Assembly: GCA_003518055.1 (NCBI GenBank)
Contig: DOZJ01000003.1
Coordinates: 2,046-66,045, forward strand
Length of the DNA stretch: 64,000 nucleotides
Origin: Candidatus Falkowbacteria bacterium
GTDB lineage: Bacteria; Patescibacteriota; Patescibacteriia; UBA11705
Direction: 5' to 3'
Below the pieces are notes generated by a model. The model searched no databases. It was not told the origin of the DNA and worked only from the letters and a program-made list of their open reading frames with translations. Positions 7,480 to 61,510 of this stretch are shown here, one piece after another (the stretch's first letter is position 1; each line of letters starts with the position of its first letter). A program made the position numbers and the translations under genes.

Positions 7480-7730
7480 AAAGTGTCATACTACCCGCCT
7501 ACGTTACACCCTCAGCATGACAAGAGGGTTATGCTTCCCGCCTACGTTAAAACTCCGGCGGGCAGGCGAGAGCCCTGCCTACCGGCAGGCAGGCTCAGCA
7601 TGACAAGGAATTTGGGATTATGCTTCAAGAGCCTTAGTATGACAAGGAGTTTTGGGATTATATTTTCCGCCTACGTTAAAACTCCGGCGGGCCGGCAGCC
7701 TCGGTATGACAAAACGAGAAACTCCAGATA
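7480..7730. repeat. Composite intergenic repeat cluster
   Basis: A 26-nt exact direct repeat CCGCCTACGTTAAAACTCCGGCGGGC occurs at 7538-7563 and 7667-7692. CATGACAAG(A/G)G-type and TTTGGGATTAT sub-repeats are also present, plus a GC hairpin CCTGCC-taccggca-GGCAGG near 7574-7593. Confidence 0.8.
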
Positions 7731-7811
7731 ACAAAAATCGGAATGATTCAAAAAAAAGGAAAGTAAAAATAAACAAGGTCATTAAACAAAACAAATATCC
7801 CCCAAGAATGG

Positions 7812-9464
7812 TTGGCAACTTCAGACCCAGACAACCAACAAACAGCTGAAAGTCAATCTCCGGAAAAACAAAGAATTGAAGCTCAAAAGCGGGAAGTGAT
7901 AACTCGTGTCGAGCAGTTTTTGGATAAATATTTAACCGGTGAGTGTTCAGAATTTATGGCCGATTCTGATGTTGATTCTATTTTTGATTGCATAGAAGTC
8001 GGGAGTTGGGGTGTCTCATCGAGGGAGTATTATCATTTTGAAAATGATGATGGTGAAGAACAGGAAACTCGGGAAGATGTGGCGCGGCAAAATTTAATCA
8101 AATTGGACAATCTAAGACGAATTGCCAAAAGATTAATCGACGCGGCTGATGATATTGAAATTACGAATGACGGTGTTAATTCTGTTGAATTTAAAATAAC
8201 AATGCCATTCACTGTTTTTGCGTCAAAATATCGTTCTCGTTTGGTGGAGATAAAAGCAGCAACCATCTCGGCCGATAAATTGAAGATCCAGATCAACGGA
8301 GGAAGCGGCGGTAAACTTTATTATAACGATCGTCAAGCTGACAATTGGGATAAAACGGGAAAGGAATGGGTGATAATAGATGATTTGACGGACAAGGTGC
8401 GATCGGGGGAACTCGAGCCGGCGGCGGCTGAAGAATTAGAATCCAACCATTTGTTCATGGATTTGTCACGTTTTGATCGAGAAAAGGTTTACGCGCAGAT
8501 TCTAACTAAATACGCTCAACTTTTGGAGGCGGAAACGAAGCTTACTGATGAATTGTCATCATTACGTAGATTGTATCAGGTGGCGCTTGATTATGGCGCG
8601 AAGTCTTTGGTTAAGGAAGTCTTGGTTCAAGCCACGCAGGGAGATGATGAGTTAATAAAAAATCGGCGGTGGATTCGCCGGTATCACGGCAACAAAACCT
8701 TGGCCCAGTTGAATGAATTTATTAAAGATAAACCAAAAAAATTGACGGAAATGGACGCGGAGCGCTGGCGGCTACACCGTTTCATCGAGCGGTTCGCGTT
8801 TTTATATCAATTTGGCCGGAATAAGATTGATGTGAAATATGATCTGGAAGCGCGATATAATCAGATTCATAATGAATCGATCAATATTGATGGCAAGATT
8901 TATTTGAATATTACAGACGACAGTTATACGATTTATTTTGGCGCCGGCGGATTTACTTCAGTTCGTTGGGATTCTCTAGTTCCAGCGCCGATTCCCGGTT
9001 ATAACAGTTATATCGCGGAGGGAAATTCATTTGACGATGATAAGCAGATTGCTGATGAATGTAGTCAAAAATTACGAGGAAAATTTATTGATACTGATAT
9101 AGTGAATCAGATCGGGGTCCACGGATCCACTCACGAAAAATGGGTGGATAGTGACATTAGAATTGCCAGAAAAGATATTATAAATTGGTGTAAAGAAAAT
9201 GAGCTTGATGAACGTGAAGCGATTGACATGATTGCGGCCATATTCAAAAAGACGGTTGAACAAGCGCGGATCAAGGGGATAACAAAAAGCGTTGCAGCCA
9301 AACAAAATAACTTACAACCACCAATTGAAGAAAAATCGCAATTAGACGAATCGAGCGATGAACCACTGGAAGTTCCTCGATCAAATGAGCCGCGATTTGC
9401 TGCTAGTATTGGAGATTTGATTAAACAAAAAAAACCGCAAAAGTCCGGACAGCAAAAGAAATAA
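7812..9464 (+). CDS. Hypothetical acidic protein (about 550 aa)
   Basis: Long uninterrupted ORF. The start is uncertain: TTG at 7812, with no in-frame ATG until well downstream. No recognisable catalytic motif. Confidence 0.6.
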   Translation: MATSDPDNQQTAESQSPEKQRIEAQKREVITRVEQFLDKYLTGECSEFMADSDVDSIFDCIEVGSWGVSSREYYHFENDDGEEQETREDVARQNLIKLDNLRRIAKRLIDAADDIEITNDGVNSVEFKITMPFTVFASKYRSRLVEIKAATISADKLKIQINGGSGGKLYYNDRQADNWDKTGKEWVIIDDLTDKVRSGELEPAAAEELESNHLFMDLSRFDREKVYAQILTKYAQLLEAETKLTDELSSLRRLYQVALDYGAKSLVKEVLVQATQGDDELIKNRRWIRRYHGNKTLAQLNEFIKDKPKKLTEMDAERWRLHRFIERFAFLYQFGRNKIDVKYDLEARYNQIHNESINIDGKIYLNITDDSYTIYFGAGGFTSVRWDSLVPAPIPGYNSYIAEGNSFDDDKQIADECSQKLRGKFIDTDIVNQIGVHGSTHEKWVDSDIRIARKDIINWCKENELDEREAIDMIAAIFKKTVEQARIKGITKSVAAKQNNLQPPIEEKSQLDESSDEPLEVPRSNEPRFAASIGDLIKQKKPQKSGQQKK

Positions 9465-9553
9465 ATGTTAATCAAACAAATTTTATCCTGAATATTAAAT
9501 AAATTAAATGTATGTGTCCATTTGAGAGACCGGCGTAAAAACCTGAGAGTGCT

Positions 9554-9921
9554 GTGAGTGAAAAAGAAGTGTCTGCGCCAATTGCGGCGGAGATTTCATC
9601 TGAACAGAGTGTTGATCGATCAACTGACAAGGGAATAGAGGATATTGAAGCTCTGAGGGCGGATTTGCATCGTCTTTTCGCCAGTCGCCAAAAAAACGTG
9701 GCTAGAAAGCGACAACTTGCTGCTCAGACGGAATCGACCGCGCGCCGGAACATAAAGAACCGGGTTCATGGCAAATGATACGGTCGCTATGGAAGGTGGC
9801 TCCGCCTGACGCCAAGATGGCTCTGCTTGGTGAATTTTTGTTCAATCCTCGCGCGCTTCGCGAATGATATGAAAATGAACAGAATTTTCAGGAGAAAATG
9901 AAAAGACGGTGGACTGAATAA
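9554..9921 (+). pseudogene. Decayed paralog of the 7062..7469 gene (frameshift plus nonsense codon)
   Basis: Frame A (9554-9778) matches the N-terminal half of the paralog (GIEDIEALRADL vs GLQDIERLREEL). The C-terminal block continues in another frame from about 9775 (MIRSLWKVAPPDAKMALLGEFLFNPRALRE*YENEQNFQEKMKRRWTE*). An in-frame TGA at 9865-9867 sits where the paralog has AGA (Arg). Confidence 0.65.
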
Positions 9922-18494: not shown

Positions 18495-18835
18495 TCGTGT
18501 TGGTGGGGTAACAATAACTACCGAAGTTTGGCGGTCGGATGTTGGTTTTTTACAAAAATTAGACAGGGGTAACTGGAATGGCGGAAGTAAAGAGTAAAGA
18601 GCGAATAATAAAAATGGCGTAACTGTAACTACGGAATTAACTGTAACTACGGAAGTTTGGCAAGTCGGTTGGGTTTTTTACAAAAGTATGGCAGCAACAA
18701 TAACTACCCACCTACGCTCTTACTGTGTAGAAAGCTACGGCGCCTGCCTGCCGGTAGGCAGGGGCGCGGCGGAAGTTTGGCGGATGGGGAGGCAAAAGTT
18801 TGGCTATAACAATGAAAGTTTGATGATTTTTTGTA
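18495..18835. repeat. Intergenic repeat cluster (GTAACTGTAACTACGGAAGTTTGGC family). Includes a ~130-nt unit duplicated at 45376-45505
   Basis: Multiple copies of (G)TAACTGTAACTACGGAA(G/T)T, TTTTTACAAAA and GGAAGTTTGGCGG. Positions 18651-18728 are identical over 78 nt to 45376-45453. GC hairpin at CCTGCCTGCCGGTAGGCAGG. Confidence 0.85.
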
Positions 18836-23304: not shown

Positions 23305-23513
23305 TTAAACTCGGAAATATTGGCTGGAATATTGGTCTTTTTTTATTTTAGCGATGTTTTTATCCACTTGATGATAAAACGCCGGATAATGCTGCCTGAC
23401 AATCATGCGGCCGCGGTATTTTTGATAATATGGCGGTTTTTGGATGTGGGCAATTTCATGAGCGAGGGTTCTGAGTAAAGAATTGATGCTTTTTGGTTTG
23501 TTAAATATAATTT
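23305..23513 (-). pseudogene. Truncated 3' fragment of the HExxH (SprT/DUF45-like) gene found intact at 31002..31400
   Basis: About 190 nt (roughly 23312-23500) are near-identical to 31010-31200. The minus-strand frame reads ...NKPKSINSLLRTLAHEIAHIQKPPYYQKYRGRMIVRQHYPAFYHQVDKNIAKIKKDQYSSQYFRV*. There is a stop and no start codon upstream. Confidence 0.7.
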
Positions 23514-31001: not shown

Positions 31002-31400
31002 TCACGAGCGAAAATATTGGCTGAAGTACGGATCTTTTTTTATTTTGATGATGTTTTTATCGACTTGATGATAAAACGCCGGATAATGCTGTCTGACAAT
31101 CATGCGGCCGCGGTATTTTTGATAATATGGCGGTTTTTGGATGTGGGCAATTTCATGAGCGAGGGTTCTGAGTAAAGTATTAATGCTTTTGGGTTTATTG
31201 GTCTTTGGTGTCAGGACATCAAGCGCGATAGTCTTTTTTTGGAAATTGATATACCCCAAAATTAATCTCTTGCCGGTTGCTGATTGACGGCGGCTGATGA
31301 TTCGTAGTTTGTATTCATCATAGCCAAAAAGTTTTCTCACGATTTGGTGAAAAATCAACTCGACAAATTCAAGGTAGCGGTCATTTTTGTAGGCTGGCAT
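31002..31400 (-). CDS. Putative zinc metalloprotease-like protein (HExxH; SprT/DUF45-like)
   Basis: 132 aa with an LAHEIAHI motif. Its C-terminal half is duplicated as a fragment at 23305-23513. Confidence 0.55.
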   Translation of the reverse strand: MPAYKNDRYLEFVELIFHQIVRKLFGYDEYKLRIISRRQSATGKRLILGYINFQKKTIALDVLTPKTNKPKSINTLLRTLAHEIAHIQKPPYYQKYRGRMIVRQHYPAFYHQVDKNIIKIKKDPYFSQYFRS

Positions 31401-31449: not shown

Positions 31450-31515
31450 GGCGGGGTAACTCTAACTACAAAAGTTTGGCGGGTTGGGTTAGTTTTTACA
31501 AAAGTTTGGCGAGGT
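31450..31515. repeat. Intergenic repeat copy (GGGGTAACTCTAACTACAAAAGTTTGGCGGG / TTTTTACAAAAGTTTGGCG)
   Basis: Matches the dispersed repeat core by direct reading. Confidence 0.75.
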
Positions 31516-34362: not shown

Positions 34363-34365
34363 AAA

Positions 34366-34582
34366 CTACGAAAGTTAGATTGTCAGATGTGAATTAGGGT
34401 GTAACTATAACTACGGAAGTTTGGCGGGGTAACTGTAACGGCGGAAGTTTGGCGGGGTAACTGTAACTACGGAAGTTAGGCGGGTGTAACTGTAACTACG
34501 GAAGTAACTATAACTACGGAAGTTAGGCGGGGGTAACTGTAACTACGGAAGTAACTGTAACTACGGAAGTTAGGCGGGGTAA
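34366..34582. repeat. Tandem array of about 7 units (21-30 nt) of the dispersed repeat GGGGTAACTGTAACTACGGAAGTT(T/A)GGCGG
   Basis: Units abut one another with no unique spacers. Each contains the internal duplication GTAACT-GTAACTA. Confidence 0.9.
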
Positions 34583-34583
34583 G

Positions 34584-34976
34584 TTAAGGTTTATTTAAGT
34601 TTGGATTTATTATACGATAAATGTTAACATTTTTTTGATTAAAGTGAACTAATAAACCAAGTTTTATTCCCGACAATTTTAAATATTCTTTGACTTGATA
34701 AAAATGCTTTTGGGAAATTAGGGATGAGGCTTTAATTTCTATAATAATACAATCTTCAATCAGAAAGTCAATCTTACGATAAGTAATCTCACGACCGTAT
34801 AATTGAAGTGGAATTTTGGATTCTTTTACGTAATTTATTGTTTTTTGTTTGAGTAGTGATTCAAGTAGTTGACAATATGATGCTTCCCTGAGACCGTAAC
34901 CGAGTTGTTTGTATATTTGATAAAATAGTCCGTTCAAGACATATGAAAGATCCTCAAAATAAAAATGAGTCTGCAT
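34584..34976 (-). CDS. GxxExxY family protein (PD-(D/E)XK nuclease fold)
   Basis: 130 aa. Contains GYGLREASY (G-x-x-E-x-x-Y) and a downstream block IDFLIEDCIIIEIKA that resembles the D...(D/E)xK core. Confidence 0.7.
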   Translation of the reverse strand: MQTHFYFEDLSYVLNGLFYQIYKQLGYGLREASYCQLLESLLKQKTINYVKESKIPLQLYGREITYRKIDFLIEDCIIIEIKASSLISQKHFYQVKEYLKLSGIKLGLLVHFNQKNVNIYRIINPNLNKP

Positions 34977-35105
34977 ATGGTTTATTATACCATATGGTGA
35001 TAAGTATGGTAAGATAACGGCTGATAAAATAATTATTGTTTGTGTGCGTTAACAGTTAAAAAATACTTATTTTAGCTAAACTTCCGTAGTTATCGTTATA
35101 CCCTA

Positions 35106-35134
35106 TTGACAAATTATAATAAGTATGATATAAT
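35106..35134 (+). promoter_or_regulatory. Perfect sigma70-type promoter P1 (TTGACA-N17-TGaTATAAT)
   Basis: TTGACA at 35106-35111, a 17-nt spacer, an extended -10 TG, and TATAAT at 35129-35134. Confidence 0.7.
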
Positions 35135-35295
35135 GGCTAATCAAGCTGAGAAATTCATTGGCACATTGGCATTCATATATAAGACATTTGGATCTTTTTG
35201 TTGAGGGGTAACTGTAACTACGGAAGTATTACTACTAACGTTTTTACATTCATATAGTATATCGCTTGTCGTGATATTATATATAAAGACACCTC

Positions 35296-35324
35296 TTGAC
35301 AAAATGATTTAGATGTGATATAAT
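35296..35324 (+). promoter_or_regulatory. Perfect sigma70-type promoter P2 (TTGACA-N17-TGaTATAAT), upstream of the GC-rich CDS
   Basis: TTGACA at 35296-35301, a 17-nt spacer, an extended -10 TG, and TATAAT at 35319-35324. No intervening terminator with a T-run was seen before 35683. Confidence 0.7.
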
Positions 35325-35682
35325 GTTAAGCATGAACTTTGATATAACCATAACTACCAGACTACGCTGAAGCTACGTCTGGCACAGCGAAAGTTTAGCA
35401 GCAGCAAGAAGGCAGCAACTATTATTGAATTTGAGTTTGTGTCAACCTGAACTTGTTTCAGGTTCTACAAAATCAGATTCAATGATGGTTGTGAGATGTC
35501 TCCAACCTGTCCGGTGTAAATGGTCAAGACCAAAGAACTTCTTAAGCTTCACTCTGGTCCCCACATATCAAAACCGGGACCTATGAGCCGATTAGCGGCT
35601 GACAAAAGTGAAGTCGAAGATCAGCGGTCAAGACCAACCAAATCGTTTTTGGGGCACAGCCCCGCTTCATGGAGGAATCCAG

Positions 35683-36768
35683 ATGACCGAGCAGAGCACC
35701 CGCATCTCCACCCTCGTCGACTACGTCAACAACCACGGCACGTCGATCCGGCCCAACGTCATGGTCGAGTCCGATCTCGTCACCGGGCGCCCCTTCCCCG
35801 CGCGTTTCGCGCGGGTGCTGGTGGCGACCCAGCAGCTGTTCAACAACATCGACGTGAAGATGCTGCAGGAGCAGATTTTCAGGCTCAACGGCGAGCAGCG
35901 CGACGCCGGCAAGCCGATGCTCGACGGCAGCCACATCACGCTCAGCGAGGCGCTCGCGAACGCCGCGGCGGTCATCAAGTACCGCGACGCCATCGACCCG
36001 CTCCTGATCAACCGCGACGCGCGACTCACCGGCTTCCAGGTGTCCGAGCTGTCGCTCGACCCGACGGAGCTGGAGAAGCACCTCGCGGCAGGCGCCGGCA
36101 CGATCGACATGACCCGTGTCGCGGCCTGGTCCAAGAAGCAGAGCCTCTACGAGGCCGCGCTCGCGGCCCGCGCGGCGATCTTCGACGACCTGCGCAGCCG
36201 CGACGTCACCCCCGAGGAGCCCAACGGCTGGAGCCTGGCCCAGTGCCAGACGTCCGACTTCTGGGCGGCCTACGAGGAGGCGATCAAGGCCTTCGCGGTC
36301 GAGGTCGGCTTCGAGTGGGACGGCACGCCGACCACGCCGACTCCGCCGGTCTACCCCGTCACGGTCGTCCGCGTGTTCCACCGGGACGACATGTCGACCG
36401 GCTTCCGGTACATCCCCATGGTGGCGGACGGTCGGCACAAGGCGGCCGTGCAGATCCTCTGGGAGCAGCACGTCGAGTGGTCCCAGGAGCGCCAGAAGCC
36501 GCCGACGTTCTACCGCCGGTTCGTGTCGGAGGTCTGCGTCCCCCTGAACCTGCTGCAGGACATGCTCCGCAGCGAGGGCGTCAAGGACGACCGGCCGACG
36601 GTCGAGGCGAAGGTCTCGAGCCTCGCCGCGTCCCTGTCCGCCATTAGGGACAACCGGAACGCCGAGTACGAGGGCGGCCGGCGCAACCGCGACGAGGACA
36701 ACGACCGCCGCGGCAGCCGGGGCAAGCGCGGCAACACCCGCCAGAACCACCCCTACTCCCGCGGCTGA
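35683..36768 (+). CDS. Foreign-composition hypothetical protein (361 aa) with an Arg/Gly/Asn/Asp-rich C-terminal tail
   Basis: ATG at 35683 lies 6 nt after GGAGGA. 58 of the first 60 codons end in G or C, which marks this as the true frame. The overlapping ORFs in other frames are Arg/Ala/Pro/Gly-rich shadows. It has an internal Pro/Thr linker (GTPTTPTPPVYP) and the tail NRNAEYEGGRRNRDEDNDRRGSRGKRGNTRQNHPYSRG. I recognised no catalytic motif. Confidence 0.8.
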   Translation: MTEQSTRISTLVDYVNNHGTSIRPNVMVESDLVTGRPFPARFARVLVATQQLFNNIDVKMLQEQIFRLNGEQRDAGKPMLDGSHITLSEALANAAAVIKYRDAIDPLLINRDARLTGFQVSELSLDPTELEKHLAAGAGTIDMTRVAAWSKKQSLYEAALAARAAIFDDLRSRDVTPEEPNGWSLAQCQTSDFWAAYEEAIKAFAVEVGFEWDGTPTTPTPPVYPVTVVRVFHRDDMSTGFRYIPMVADGRHKAAVQILWEQHVEWSQERQKPPTFYRRFVSEVCVPLNLLQDMLRSEGVKDDRPTVEAKVSSLAASLSAIRDNRNAEYEGGRRNRDEDNDRRGSRGKRGNTRQNHPYSRG

Positions 36769-37743: not shown

Positions 37744-37778
37744 AAACAGACTTTAACGAAGTCTGCTTTTGTTTATAT

Positions 37779-37888
37779 ACTGTAACTGCGAAAGTATGGC
37801 CGTGGGGGCTACTTATACAAAATGAGTATAGTTAAAGTAAAAAGTGGAGGGAAAAGTTTTTACAAAAGTTTGGCGGGTGTAGCTGTAA
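37779..37888. repeat. Intergenic repeat copies (ACTGTAACTGCGAAAGTATGGCC ... TTTTTACAAAAGTTTGGCGGGTGTAGCTGTAA)
   Basis: Diverged members of the dispersed repeat family, read directly. Confidence 0.7.
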
Positions 37889-37892
37889 TAAA

Positions 37893-38349: not shown

Positions 38350-38448
38350 GAGTTTTTACAAAGTGGTTATAGTTTTTTACAAAAGTATAACAGCAACTAC
38401 GAAAGCTTGACGGTTAGTGGCAGGGTTTTACAAAAGGTTGGCGGGGCG
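38350..38448. repeat. Intergenic repeat copies (TTTTTACAAAGT..., TTTTTTACAAAAGTATAACAGCAACTACGAAAGCTTGAC, TTTTACAAAAGGTTGGCGGGG)
   Basis: Diverged members of the same repeat family, lying between two minus-strand genes. Confidence 0.7.
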
Positions 38449-38449
38449 G

Positions 38450-44385: not shown

Positions 44386-45186
44386 TTGAACGACATTATG
44401 ATTGTATTTGCGGCGGTGGTCCCCCACCCGCCATTAATCATTCCCAGCTTGGGAAAAGATAATACAAAAAAATTGACTAAAACTCAAGAAGCTTTTGAAA
44501 TTTTAAAAAAAGAATTTGAGGCGGCTAAACCTGATACGGTTGTAATATTTTCACCGCATGGAGATATATATCCGGATGCGTTTACCATCAATACTTTGCC
44601 TGAATATGAGTTGAATTTTGAAGATTTCGGCGACTTTGAAACTCGGATGAATTTTGTCGGTGACCTAGGATTGATCAATCGATTCCGGGAACAAGTGGAA
44701 ACTACCCTACCGGTGGTGTTAAAATCAGAGTCGGTGCTTGATTATGGCGTGGGCATTCCATTGTATTCTCTCGCTCAGGCATATAAAAATTTCAAAATAA
44801 TGCCGATAAATTCTTCCTTACTTGACCTCGAACAGCATTTGAATTTTGGCGAGGAATTGAAAGAAGCGATATTTTCAAGTGAAAAAAAGGTGGCGATAAT
44901 CGCCTCAGCTGATTTGAGTCATCGGCTGTCAAAAAATGCTCCAGCCGGGTTTTCACCGAAAGCCAAGGATTTTGATAAAAAAATTATTCAGTATTTGAAA
45001 CAAAAAAAAGTAGATCAGATGATCCAATTCGATTCCCAGCTGCTCAAGGAGGCCGAAGAGTGCGGGTTGAGACCGATTATGATGTTGATGGGAGTGATTA
45101 GGAATATGAATTATGATTTTCAGGTTTTGAGTTATGAGTCGCCTTTTGGGGTGGGATATTTGGTGGGAGAGTGTTTGTTGAAGTAA
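44386..45186 (+). CDS. Class III extradiol dioxygenase (LigB/DODA-like) family protein
   Basis: Motifs seen: AAVVPHPPLIIP, FSPHGD and ASADLSHRL. The start is uncertain (TTG at 44386 or ATG at 44398). Confidence 0.6.
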   Translation: MNDIMIVFAAVVPHPPLIIPSLGKDNTKKLTKTQEAFEILKKEFEAAKPDTVVIFSPHGDIYPDAFTINTLPEYELNFEDFGDFETRMNFVGDLGLINRFREQVETTLPVVLKSESVLDYGVGIPLYSLAQAYKNFKIMPINSSLLDLEQHLNFGEELKEAIFSSEKKVAIIASADLSHRLSKNAPAGFSPKAKDFDKKIIQYLKQKKVDQMIQFDSQLLKEAEECGLRPIMMLMGVIRNMNYDFQVLSYESPFGVGYLVGECLLK

Positions 45187-45545
45187 CTGTAACTACGAAA
45201 GTTTGGCAGCAAGTAGATAGTTTTACGAAAATTAGGCGGGCGTAACTGTAACTACGGAATTAACTGTAACTACCCGCCTACGCTCTTACTTCCACCTACG
45301 CATAACGCTTATGCCTTCGCTAAAGCTATGGCATACAGGTCGGTGGACAGGGTGTAGAGCTACGGCGGGCGCGGCGGAAGTTTGGCAAGTCGGTTGGGTT
45401 TTTTACAAAAGTATGGCAGCAACAATAACTACCCACCTACGCTCTTACTGTGTGAGCTACGGCGCCTGCCTGCCGGTAGGCAGGGGCGCAGCGGAGGTTT
45501 GGCGGGGATTGGTTGCGTAGGGTTAATTCAGGGAAAAGAAAGGCG
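45181..45545. repeat. Intergenic repeat cluster that includes the second copy of the ~130-nt unit
   Basis: GTAACTGTAACTACGAAAGTTTGGCAGCAAG and GCGTAACTGTAACTACGGAATTAACTGTAACTAC (the latter also at 18618-18650). Positions 45376-45505 match 18651-18783. Confidence 0.85.
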
Positions 45546-61225: not shown

Positions 61226-61295
61226 AAAACTCCAGAAAGTGGAGATTTTTTTATTTACAAGAAAAACCAACGACGAATAGCTGATGTATGCTTTT

Positions 61296-61510
61296 AAAAG
61301 CGTGCCGGTGACAGCAGTGGTCATCCTTCGATCCTGCCGATCGAGAACCTTCCGCCTTCACTATCGTTTCGGCGGACAAGCAGGGTGACAAAATGTTTTA
61401 TGCACGCTTCGACCATTCGACTAGGCTCGGGGCAAGCTTGGCGTCCCGGATAAACCAACGGGGCAGGTATGGTGACATACGTTCCCCGTGTTATGCTGGT
61501 GGTTTTCATT
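61296..61510. ncRNA. Candidate structured non-coding RNA (class and strand unknown)
   Basis: A GC-richer intergenic block lies between a terminator and a convergent gene end. A long-range 8-bp pairing links 61298-61305 (AAGCGTGC) to 61402-61409 (GCACGCTT) and encloses local hairpins. GGTGACA occurs three times (61307, 61384, 61471). The 62-aa track ORF here looks non-coding. Confidence 0.3.

Follow-up and report, generated by a model that had tools for sequence, protein, structure and literature searches.

A co-oriented mosaic repeat family in intergenic junctions of a Candidatus Falkowbacteria genome

The gltX array and its neighborhood

The window, by which we mean the whole stretch of 64,000 nucleotides that was analyzed, encodes a GluRS that is annotated at NCBI as Candidatus Falkowbacteria. 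It is identical to the groundwater-metagenome contigs ENA ERZ909580 k127_334779 and JGI 3300009031 Ga0103682_10000014, and its coordinates match the end of ENA ERZ5996431 NODE_7 (353,838 bp). The ENA records of the aquifer samples carry the label PRJNA292723. Two minus-strand genes, one for a PD-(D/E)XK (PDDEXK_3) protein and the other gltX, are separated by a 221-bp gap that runs from the stop codon of the first to the start codon of the second and is wholly filled by a tandem repeat array on the plus strand (R3, 34363..34583). The first-pass annotation had described seven units without spacers at this site, and TRF and the sequence itself confirm that the array is real. Seven head-to-tail units, copies of GTAACTRTAAC-TACGGAA, occupy positions 34401-34570; five of the seven end in a GTTWGGCGGG tail that is missing from the other two, and right next to the gltX start codon there is a partial unit (34363-34382). 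The internal GTAACT/GTAACTA duplication reported for the unit is also present in the array. Over 34401-34582, TRF returned scores of 173 at a period of 28, 86 at a period of 18, and 227 at a period of 47. Growth of the array by slipped-strand mispairing or unequal recombination is suggested by this 47-nt higher-order period, which has a 93% match. The PDDEXK_3 gene (34584-34976, minus strand) sits between the array and a divergent promoter region. No homolog of it was found at the same position in the closest relative, a Falkowbacteria genome referred to below as L023, and the gene may have come together with the array.

The units of this family are direct repeats of about 28 to 30 nt, and they fall into two types with a common 16-nt 3' core, TAC-RRAAGT-WTGGCRG. 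Type 1 reads GTAACTGTAAC-TAC-RRAAGT-TTGGCRG and type 2 reads GGTTGGGTTTTT-TAC-AAAAGT-WTGGCRG. Within clusters the two types usually alternate, the first unit is often a GAAAG variant, and truncated units stop at GGAAGT. The units are neither palindromes nor hairpins. The array folded with z scores of +2.0 and +2.3 on the two strands, i.e., worse than shuffled sequences, and a two-unit stretch folded with DNA parameters gave z scores of 0.12 and 0.44, which are close to zero. Since the array folds no better than shuffled sequence, the units are not REP-like, and the initial description of the family as "REP/MITE-like" is not supported: the units are nonpalindromic, do not occur in inverted pairs, and have neither terminal inverted repeats nor target-site duplications. 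With no hairpins, and with an orientation that takes no account of which way transcription runs, the units are unlikely to act at transcript 3' ends or in termination; as terminators they were rejected because they contain no hairpin followed by a T-run. No promoter was found within the array, and a T-box or other gltX leader was discarded as a candidate on the grounds that there was no Rfam match and no structure.

In a CPR genome, tandem units that recur about every 28 nt beside an unannotated orphan protein could be taken for an array of guide RNAs, whether a CRISPR array that has degenerated or one of the TIGR arrays that occur in CPR bacteria and in the phages that infect them. TIGR arrays, which have been reported in CPR, consist of two alternating 8- to 12-nt repeats with 9-nt spacers and box C/D and are accompanied by a Nop-domain Tas protein (PMC12045711). 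The family described here resembles them in forming tandem short-period arrays in a CPR genome (PMC12045711) but has no spacers, edge/loop repeats, box C/D, or Nop-domain protein. For CRISPR, the units abut without spacers and no Cas domains were found in the neighboring proteins; for TIGR, no dual repeats, spacers, or box C/D were present, and the neighbors had no Nop match at an E value of ≤1. The near identity of the units, the lack of variable spacers, and the scattering of the same units singly over many loci make a guide-RNA array hardly credible.

The orphan gene (386 amino acids, 35608-36768, plus strand) is overlooked by annotation pipelines, which call a minus-strand open reading frame instead. 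Its G+C fractions at codon positions 1, 2, and 3 are 0.64, 0.45, and 0.94 (0.52, 0.31, and 0.50 in gltX), and these values confirm the plus-strand frame. It is served by two perfect TTGACA-17-TATAAT promoters (P1, 35106-35134; P2, 35296-35324) and a plus-strand terminator. Some 300 nt of its leader (35100-35607) is conserved with L023, including two promoters and compensatory hairpins. L023 also has a syntenic homolog (8086-9720, minus strand) that is 39% identical and lies where the G+C content is 65%. Three relatives that are more distant (L025, L026, and L028) have an open reading frame of 515 to 573 amino acids with a GC3 of 0.80 to 0.94 in the same slot between NUDIX and gltX and in the same orientation, with no detectable homology to the orphan gene, and weaker G+C enrichment is seen in that slot in L027 and L087. 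The orphan protein had no Pfam or PHROG match and only one relative among 1.84 billion representative proteins, and its single-sequence AlphaFold model (pLDDT 34) was unusable.

This gene had been regarded as foreign and the repeats as marking the borders of the variable locus that holds it, and neither view survives comparison. Because a homolog or a GC3-rich gene occupies the slot across relatives, with a conserved leader in L023, the orphan gene has been kept vertically and was not recently imported; it is extremely GC3 rich, and it may be of more interest than the repeats themselves. Copies of the repeat lie inside the locus (35074-35408) as well as at six loci outside it, at 18.5, 31.4, 38.4, and 45.2 kb in the window and at about -8.3 and +70 kb.

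Extent and strand polarity of the family

The clusters agree base for base among the window, an ENA contig of 66 kb, and a JGI contig of 174 kb, which differ in pipeline and sample. Short Logan and ENA contigs stop exactly within repeats, at 31482, 34474, and 34483, so that independent short-read assemblies break inside the family, as repetition in the genome would have it. Such terminations could also be read as signs of a chimeric or collapsed repeat made by the assembler, but the agreement of the independent assemblies excludes such an artifact with near certainty. No transposition or excision intermediates and no empty-site polymorphism were seen; at the array, which the window, ENA, and JGI assemblies all cross, their sequences are identical.

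The core query GTAACTGTAACTACGGAAGT, with up to three mismatches allowed, gave 15 matches versus 0.00 expected, and ACTACGGAAGTTTGGCGG gave 12 versus 0.02 expected. An nhmmer profile was built from 25 units and used to scan the window and 13 kb of flanking sequence (9.7 kb of contig L103 on the left and 3.4 kb of L108 on the right). These 77 kb yielded 32 unit copies at an E value of <1. About 89% of the window is coding and 11% intergenic, and all 32 copies proved to be intergenic, with none in a coding sequence. The copies are too few and too clumped for DNA-uptake sequences, which were ruled out on these grounds and by the lack of copies in coding sequence.

The motif was present at all nine of the sites first listed. 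On the left, R1 (18505..18804) lies between alr and an ftsQ-like gene and consists of alternating type-1 and type-2 units, and R2 (31453..31514) has one unit of each type between minus-strand M23 peptidase and SprT-like genes. Beyond the array there is an inverted unit (35074..35103; 35075-35099 in the profile scan), the only one of its kind, directly upstream of the -35 box of P1. It is followed by a solitary truncated type-1 unit (35205..35227) between P1 and P2 and, downstream of P2, by a type-1 unit (35344..35408) that is split between CTAC and GAAAGT by a 31-nt hairpin module. R5 (37780..37889) occupies a convergent gap, past a bidirectional terminator at 37747-37765; R6 (38352..38449) has four units, which take up the space from the start of NUDIX to the stop of WecG, two minus-strand genes; and R7 (45183..45507) lies between a ligB-like gene and priA. 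Some details of the original description needed correction. This last cluster, given as 45181-45545, contains the motif and ends at about 45507, and its first unit itself provides the stop codon of the ligB-like gene (45184-45186). The family is not confined to the window: a further site lies to the left at L103 1466-1600 (about -8.3 kb in window coordinates), and another lies to the right at L109 4433-4458 (about +70 kb, provided that the sequence really continues across the L108 junction). The copies are clumped, with none at 1 to 18 kb or 46 to 64 kb of the window and none in 10 kb of L109 beyond the insertion sequence (IS) described below, a pattern that local spread would explain no less well than genome-wide transposition.

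Exact-pattern scans found no match in GTDB species genomes and gave 13 metagenome-contig and 4 viral-contig matches, all of them single and, by a rough estimate, at about the rate expected by chance; the source metagenome is evidently not among the contents of the metagenome collection that was scanned. R7 had no blastn match among phage and plasmid records. Rfam 15 gave no match at the gathering threshold over the whole window, and the matches at an E value of ≤1, which fell in three cluster regions, were at chance level. The profile scan, the array, and the relatives without the family together uphold the original claim of a genome-specific, strictly intergenic family that is both dispersed and tandemly amplified.

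Two other repeats were observed in the region. A 95-bp tandem repeat with the palindromic core GATTCCCGCACTAAAGTGCGGGGAATG lies about 2 kb left of the window start (L103/L104, about 7550-7850). Two assemblies differ there by 95 bp, consistent with one repeat copy, and the difference seems to be a genuine polymorphism in copy number. The repeat is not a CRISPR array, its copies being near identical from end to end. A 191-nt direct repeat with 92% identity is found at 23312-23502 and 31009-31199, with one copy inside the SprT-like gene of 132 amino acids and the other in a 483-bp gap upstream of a gene of 2,317 amino acids. It appears to be a partial gene duplicate.

Units on the plus strand account for 31 of the 32 copies and, by majority, for all nine clusters. 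The genes that flank the clusters are both on the plus strand at three of them, both on the minus strand at four, and in the plus-minus and minus-plus arrangements at one each. Cluster orientation is thus constant in all kinds of gap and independent of gene direction, and the polarity must follow the chromosome strand and not transcription. GC skew is positive over the whole window (about 42% G+C), with no switch inside it, and the window therefore appears to be a single replichore, with the units on its G-rich strand; the L109 copy is also on the locally G-rich strand. The sampled DNA amounts to about 94 kb, probably of one replichore, and within one replichore a polarity linked to replication is inseparable from co-orientation inherited through local copying. 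At about position 10000 of L109 (JGI contig Ga0103682_10000094), the sign of the GC skew switches precisely where the IS copy lies, from about -0.09 to -0.12 on the left to +0.07 to +0.10 on the right, which suggests an IS-mediated inversion, a chimeric join, or a nearby replication landmark. The perfect DnaA-box consensus TTATCCACA occurs five times in the window (5407, 20454, 23525, 56426, and 59592) versus 0.7 expected; the five are dispersed, and two are in long intergenic regions.

This polarity bears directly on a possible role at the RNA level, in which the units would act as a protein-sequestering RNA, an mRNA stabilizer, or a small-RNA gene family. A type-1 unit is able to fold as AACU-ACGGA-AGUU, in which a short stem carries an ANGGA loop resembling CsrA/RsmE sites, and the array contains seven ACGGA motifs, each between AACT and AGTT. 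The clusters belong to probable operon transcripts in which no terminator separates the genes, and there are compensatory differences among the stems of the hairpin modules. Against this, unit orientation ignores transcription, so that a given strand is transcribed in only about half of the clusters (four minus, three plus), and the GGA is not conserved over unit variants, which have GG, GA, or AA. Both of these observations led us to reject a CsrA-type decoy. Unit structure was not above chance, Rfam gave no match, and the array has no promoters of its own. A role in RNA is accordingly improbable.

Insertion into junctions, block copying, and hairpin modules

The nearest GluRS, from Falkowbacteria CG10_big_fil_rev_8_21_14_0_10_39_11 (L023), is just 75% identical, so no strain-level relatives were available. 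Seven syntenic loci with GluRS identities of 60 to 75% (141 kb in total) were compared, and in all of them gene order is preserved as in the window. The profile gave no match at an E value of <1 in these 141 kb, nor did the relatives have a repeat family of their own. The junction between alr and ftsQ measures -11 to 12 bp in the relatives and 344 bp in the window, that between ligB and priA measures 2 to 4 bp and 408 bp, and that between wecG and nudix measures about 6 to 50 bp and 101 bp, the latter consisting entirely of repeats. In alignment, two units (35205-35227 and 35344-35408) stand out as additions within the leader that is otherwise conserved with L023. Because the relatives lack the units, their junctions are short, and the leader is interrupted, the repeats are lineage-specific insertions, several of which lie in operon junctions.

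It is possible that the clusters are instead protein-binding arrays, with the 16-nt core as the putative site of a nucleoid-associated protein, a regulator, or a polarity factor of the FtsK/recombination type; the shared orientation would then matter for function. In favor of this are a core of about 16 nt common to two otherwise different unit types and strict orientation on the G-rich strand independently of transcription. The inverted unit lies right against the -35 box of a promoter with a perfect consensus, and many of the neighbors are envelope or division genes (alr, ftsQ, M23 peptidase, and WecG). However, the syntenic relatives keep these genes and operon junctions without the sites, and hence no conserved regulon depends on them. 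The copies are also clumped in multiunit blocks and a seven-unit array and are not spread like polarity octamers, and near-identical 168-nt blocks point to recent copying and not to conserved operators. We consider binding arrays unlikely, though worth keeping in mind.

The copying is most evident between R1 and R7. Positions 18616-18728 and 45239-45453 are identical over 35 plus 78 nt apart from a 102-nt insertion, and the homology continues to 18783 and 45505 at about 96% identity. In R1, positions 18616-18783 nearly duplicate 45239-45505; this block of four units, about 168 nt long and about 97 to 100% identical, has been copied between loci 26.7 kb apart. Dispersal of such blocks might have occurred by recombination, by gene conversion between clusters, or by transposition.

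The 102-nt insertion (45274-45375) lies in R7 between CTAC and GGAAG and is missing from the otherwise identical R1 copy. It has a closing stem of 5 to 6 bp, no duplication, and a boundary ambiguity of 1 nt, and it contains a nested module. It is one of five hairpin modules, all on the plus strand; the others are a 63-nt module in R1 (18708-18770), a 60-nt module in R7 (45433-45492), the 31-nt module of the split unit (35358-35388, stem CCAGAC/GTCTGG), and one outside the window at about L103 1515-1565. All five are inserted at a single position, between (C/T)TAC and RRAAGT, without target duplication. Those in the window have a common layout of stem-TACGC-loop-GCTAC-stem'-CRCRGC, with three 6-bp stems that differ from each other while each is perfectly complementary (CCCGCC/GGCGGG, CCAGAC/GTCTGG, and TCCACC/GGTGGA). 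They fold modestly better than shuffles, with z scores from -0.9 to -3.5. Strand-specific insertion 3' of a specific tetranucleotide without target duplication, which is the behavior of PATE-like elements, was thus found in five of five cases; homology of the module ends to a resident autonomous IS was not detected by blastn with a word size of 7. The hairpin modules may be small mobile elements that insert strand specifically into single-stranded DNA in the manner of IS200/IS605 (Y1) elements.

An element of that kind is resident nearby. A Y1 transposase of 141 amino acids is encoded at L108 2766-3191, about 200 bp past the window end, within an IS200/IS605-type element on the minus strand (L108 2600-3300, about 64.1-64.8 kb in window coordinates). 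Hairpins that bear no relation to the repeat units, CCACCAGC...GCTGGTGG, flank the transposase. The transposase was found on 17 contigs with two right junctions, to AhpC (L108) and TsaD (L109), and is therefore present in at least two genomic contexts; three assemblies stop within the element. A remnant without tnpA is located at 61246-61510, with sequences resembling the left and right ends at 61246-61302 and 61492-61510 in the opposite orientation. When the IS and its flanks were compared with the window by blastn (word size 7), this remnant was the only match, and nothing was found in the repeat clusters. Because the IS ends resemble neither units nor modules, the link between the transposase and the repeat family is circumstantial.

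These elements could be combined into a replication-polarized system of two layers, in which nonpalindromic units of about 28 nt carrying a YTAC|RR target multiply as landing pads and the resident Y1 transposase inserts hairpins into them on one DNA strand. If true, this would be a CPR analog of the REP-RAYT partnership without palindromic REPs, and the orientation of the units would flip at the replication origin and terminus. We regard the complete scheme as rather doubtful; the more limited proposal that units serve as landing pads for the hairpin modules is part of the reading that we prefer.

Interpretation and relation to known repeats

The reading that we prefer is that the family consists of lineage-specific, noncoding mosaic repeats that invaded intergenic junctions after the split from the nearest relative and that they are most likely selfish or neutral and not of cellular function. 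We assign this a probability of roughly 0.55. The units are co-oriented and nonpalindromic, they are amplified in tandem and copied in blocks, hairpins are inserted in them at a single position, and they are absent from the relatives. As selfish or neutral elements, the units would ride passively in operon transcripts, in either sense.

Close parallels are found among the BIME/REP elements of the enterobacteria, which are associated with RAYT transposases. BIMEs are extragenic, species-specific mosaics of alternating short motifs, and BIME-2 is tandemly amplified. The family described here is likewise strictly extragenic, species specific, and mosaic, alternates motif types, can be amplified, and lies inside operon transcripts, and both have a conserved CTAC/GTAG tetranucleotide and a Y1 (HUH) transposase encoded in the genome. 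However, a REP unit is an imperfect palindrome of 20 to 40 nt that forms a stable hairpin, whereas the units here are nonpalindromic, have one orientation in 31 of 32 cases, and show no inverted pairs. Similarly, RAYT is a single-copy gene flanked by repeats of its family, whereas the Y1 transposase here is flanked by its own IS200-type hairpins and not by the family repeats.

The hairpin modules are more reminiscent of IS200/IS605 elements and PATEs. IS608, of the IS200/IS605 family, inserts 3' of TTAC, and the modules share with these elements a position 3' of a fixed (C/T)TAC, strand specificity, stem-loops, and the absence of duplications and of long terminal inverted repeats; an IS200-type tnpA is also close by. 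The ends of the modules are nevertheless unlike those of the resident IS, and the 28-nt units have no hairpins.

NIMEs in Neisseria, BOX elements in pneumococci, and STAR elements in staphylococci are, like this family, lineage-specific intergenic arrays of a few short modules that vary in number and amplify locally, but the sequences and sizes of their modules are unrelated to those of the units here. Inverted dRS3 repeats mark the limits of NIMEs, the RNA of BOX elements folds into stable structures, and none of the three is known for strict single-strand polarity. Mycobacterial MIRU-VNTR loci also consist of direct tandem repeats in intergenic operon junctions. MIRUs measure 46 to 101 bp, run in the direction of transcription, and include small overlapping reading frames, in contrast to the units of 18 to 30 nt described here, whose orientation is independent of gene strand. 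The family falls into the same general class as BIMEs, NIMEs, BOX, STAR, and MIRU but belongs to none of these families. It is unusual in three respects: its units are not palindromic, they show strict polarity on a single strand, and they carry nested hairpin insertions at a specific site. Bacterial repeats of this kind are known, and the family is a genuine case of them, not a new biological system.

A full-text literature search found no paper describing dispersed repeat families in CPR genomes. The repeats have practical consequences, as they break short-read assemblies and, together with the GC3-rich gene, mislead gene callers, and they could serve as strain markers for the population. 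The combination of polarity and single-position hairpin insertions offers a testable handle on single-strand mobilization of the Y1 type. For the biology of the organism, the family means that a small, tightly packed CPR genome is open to noncoding repeats, with junctions of 2 to 12 bp in its relatives having become junctions of 340 to 410 bp.
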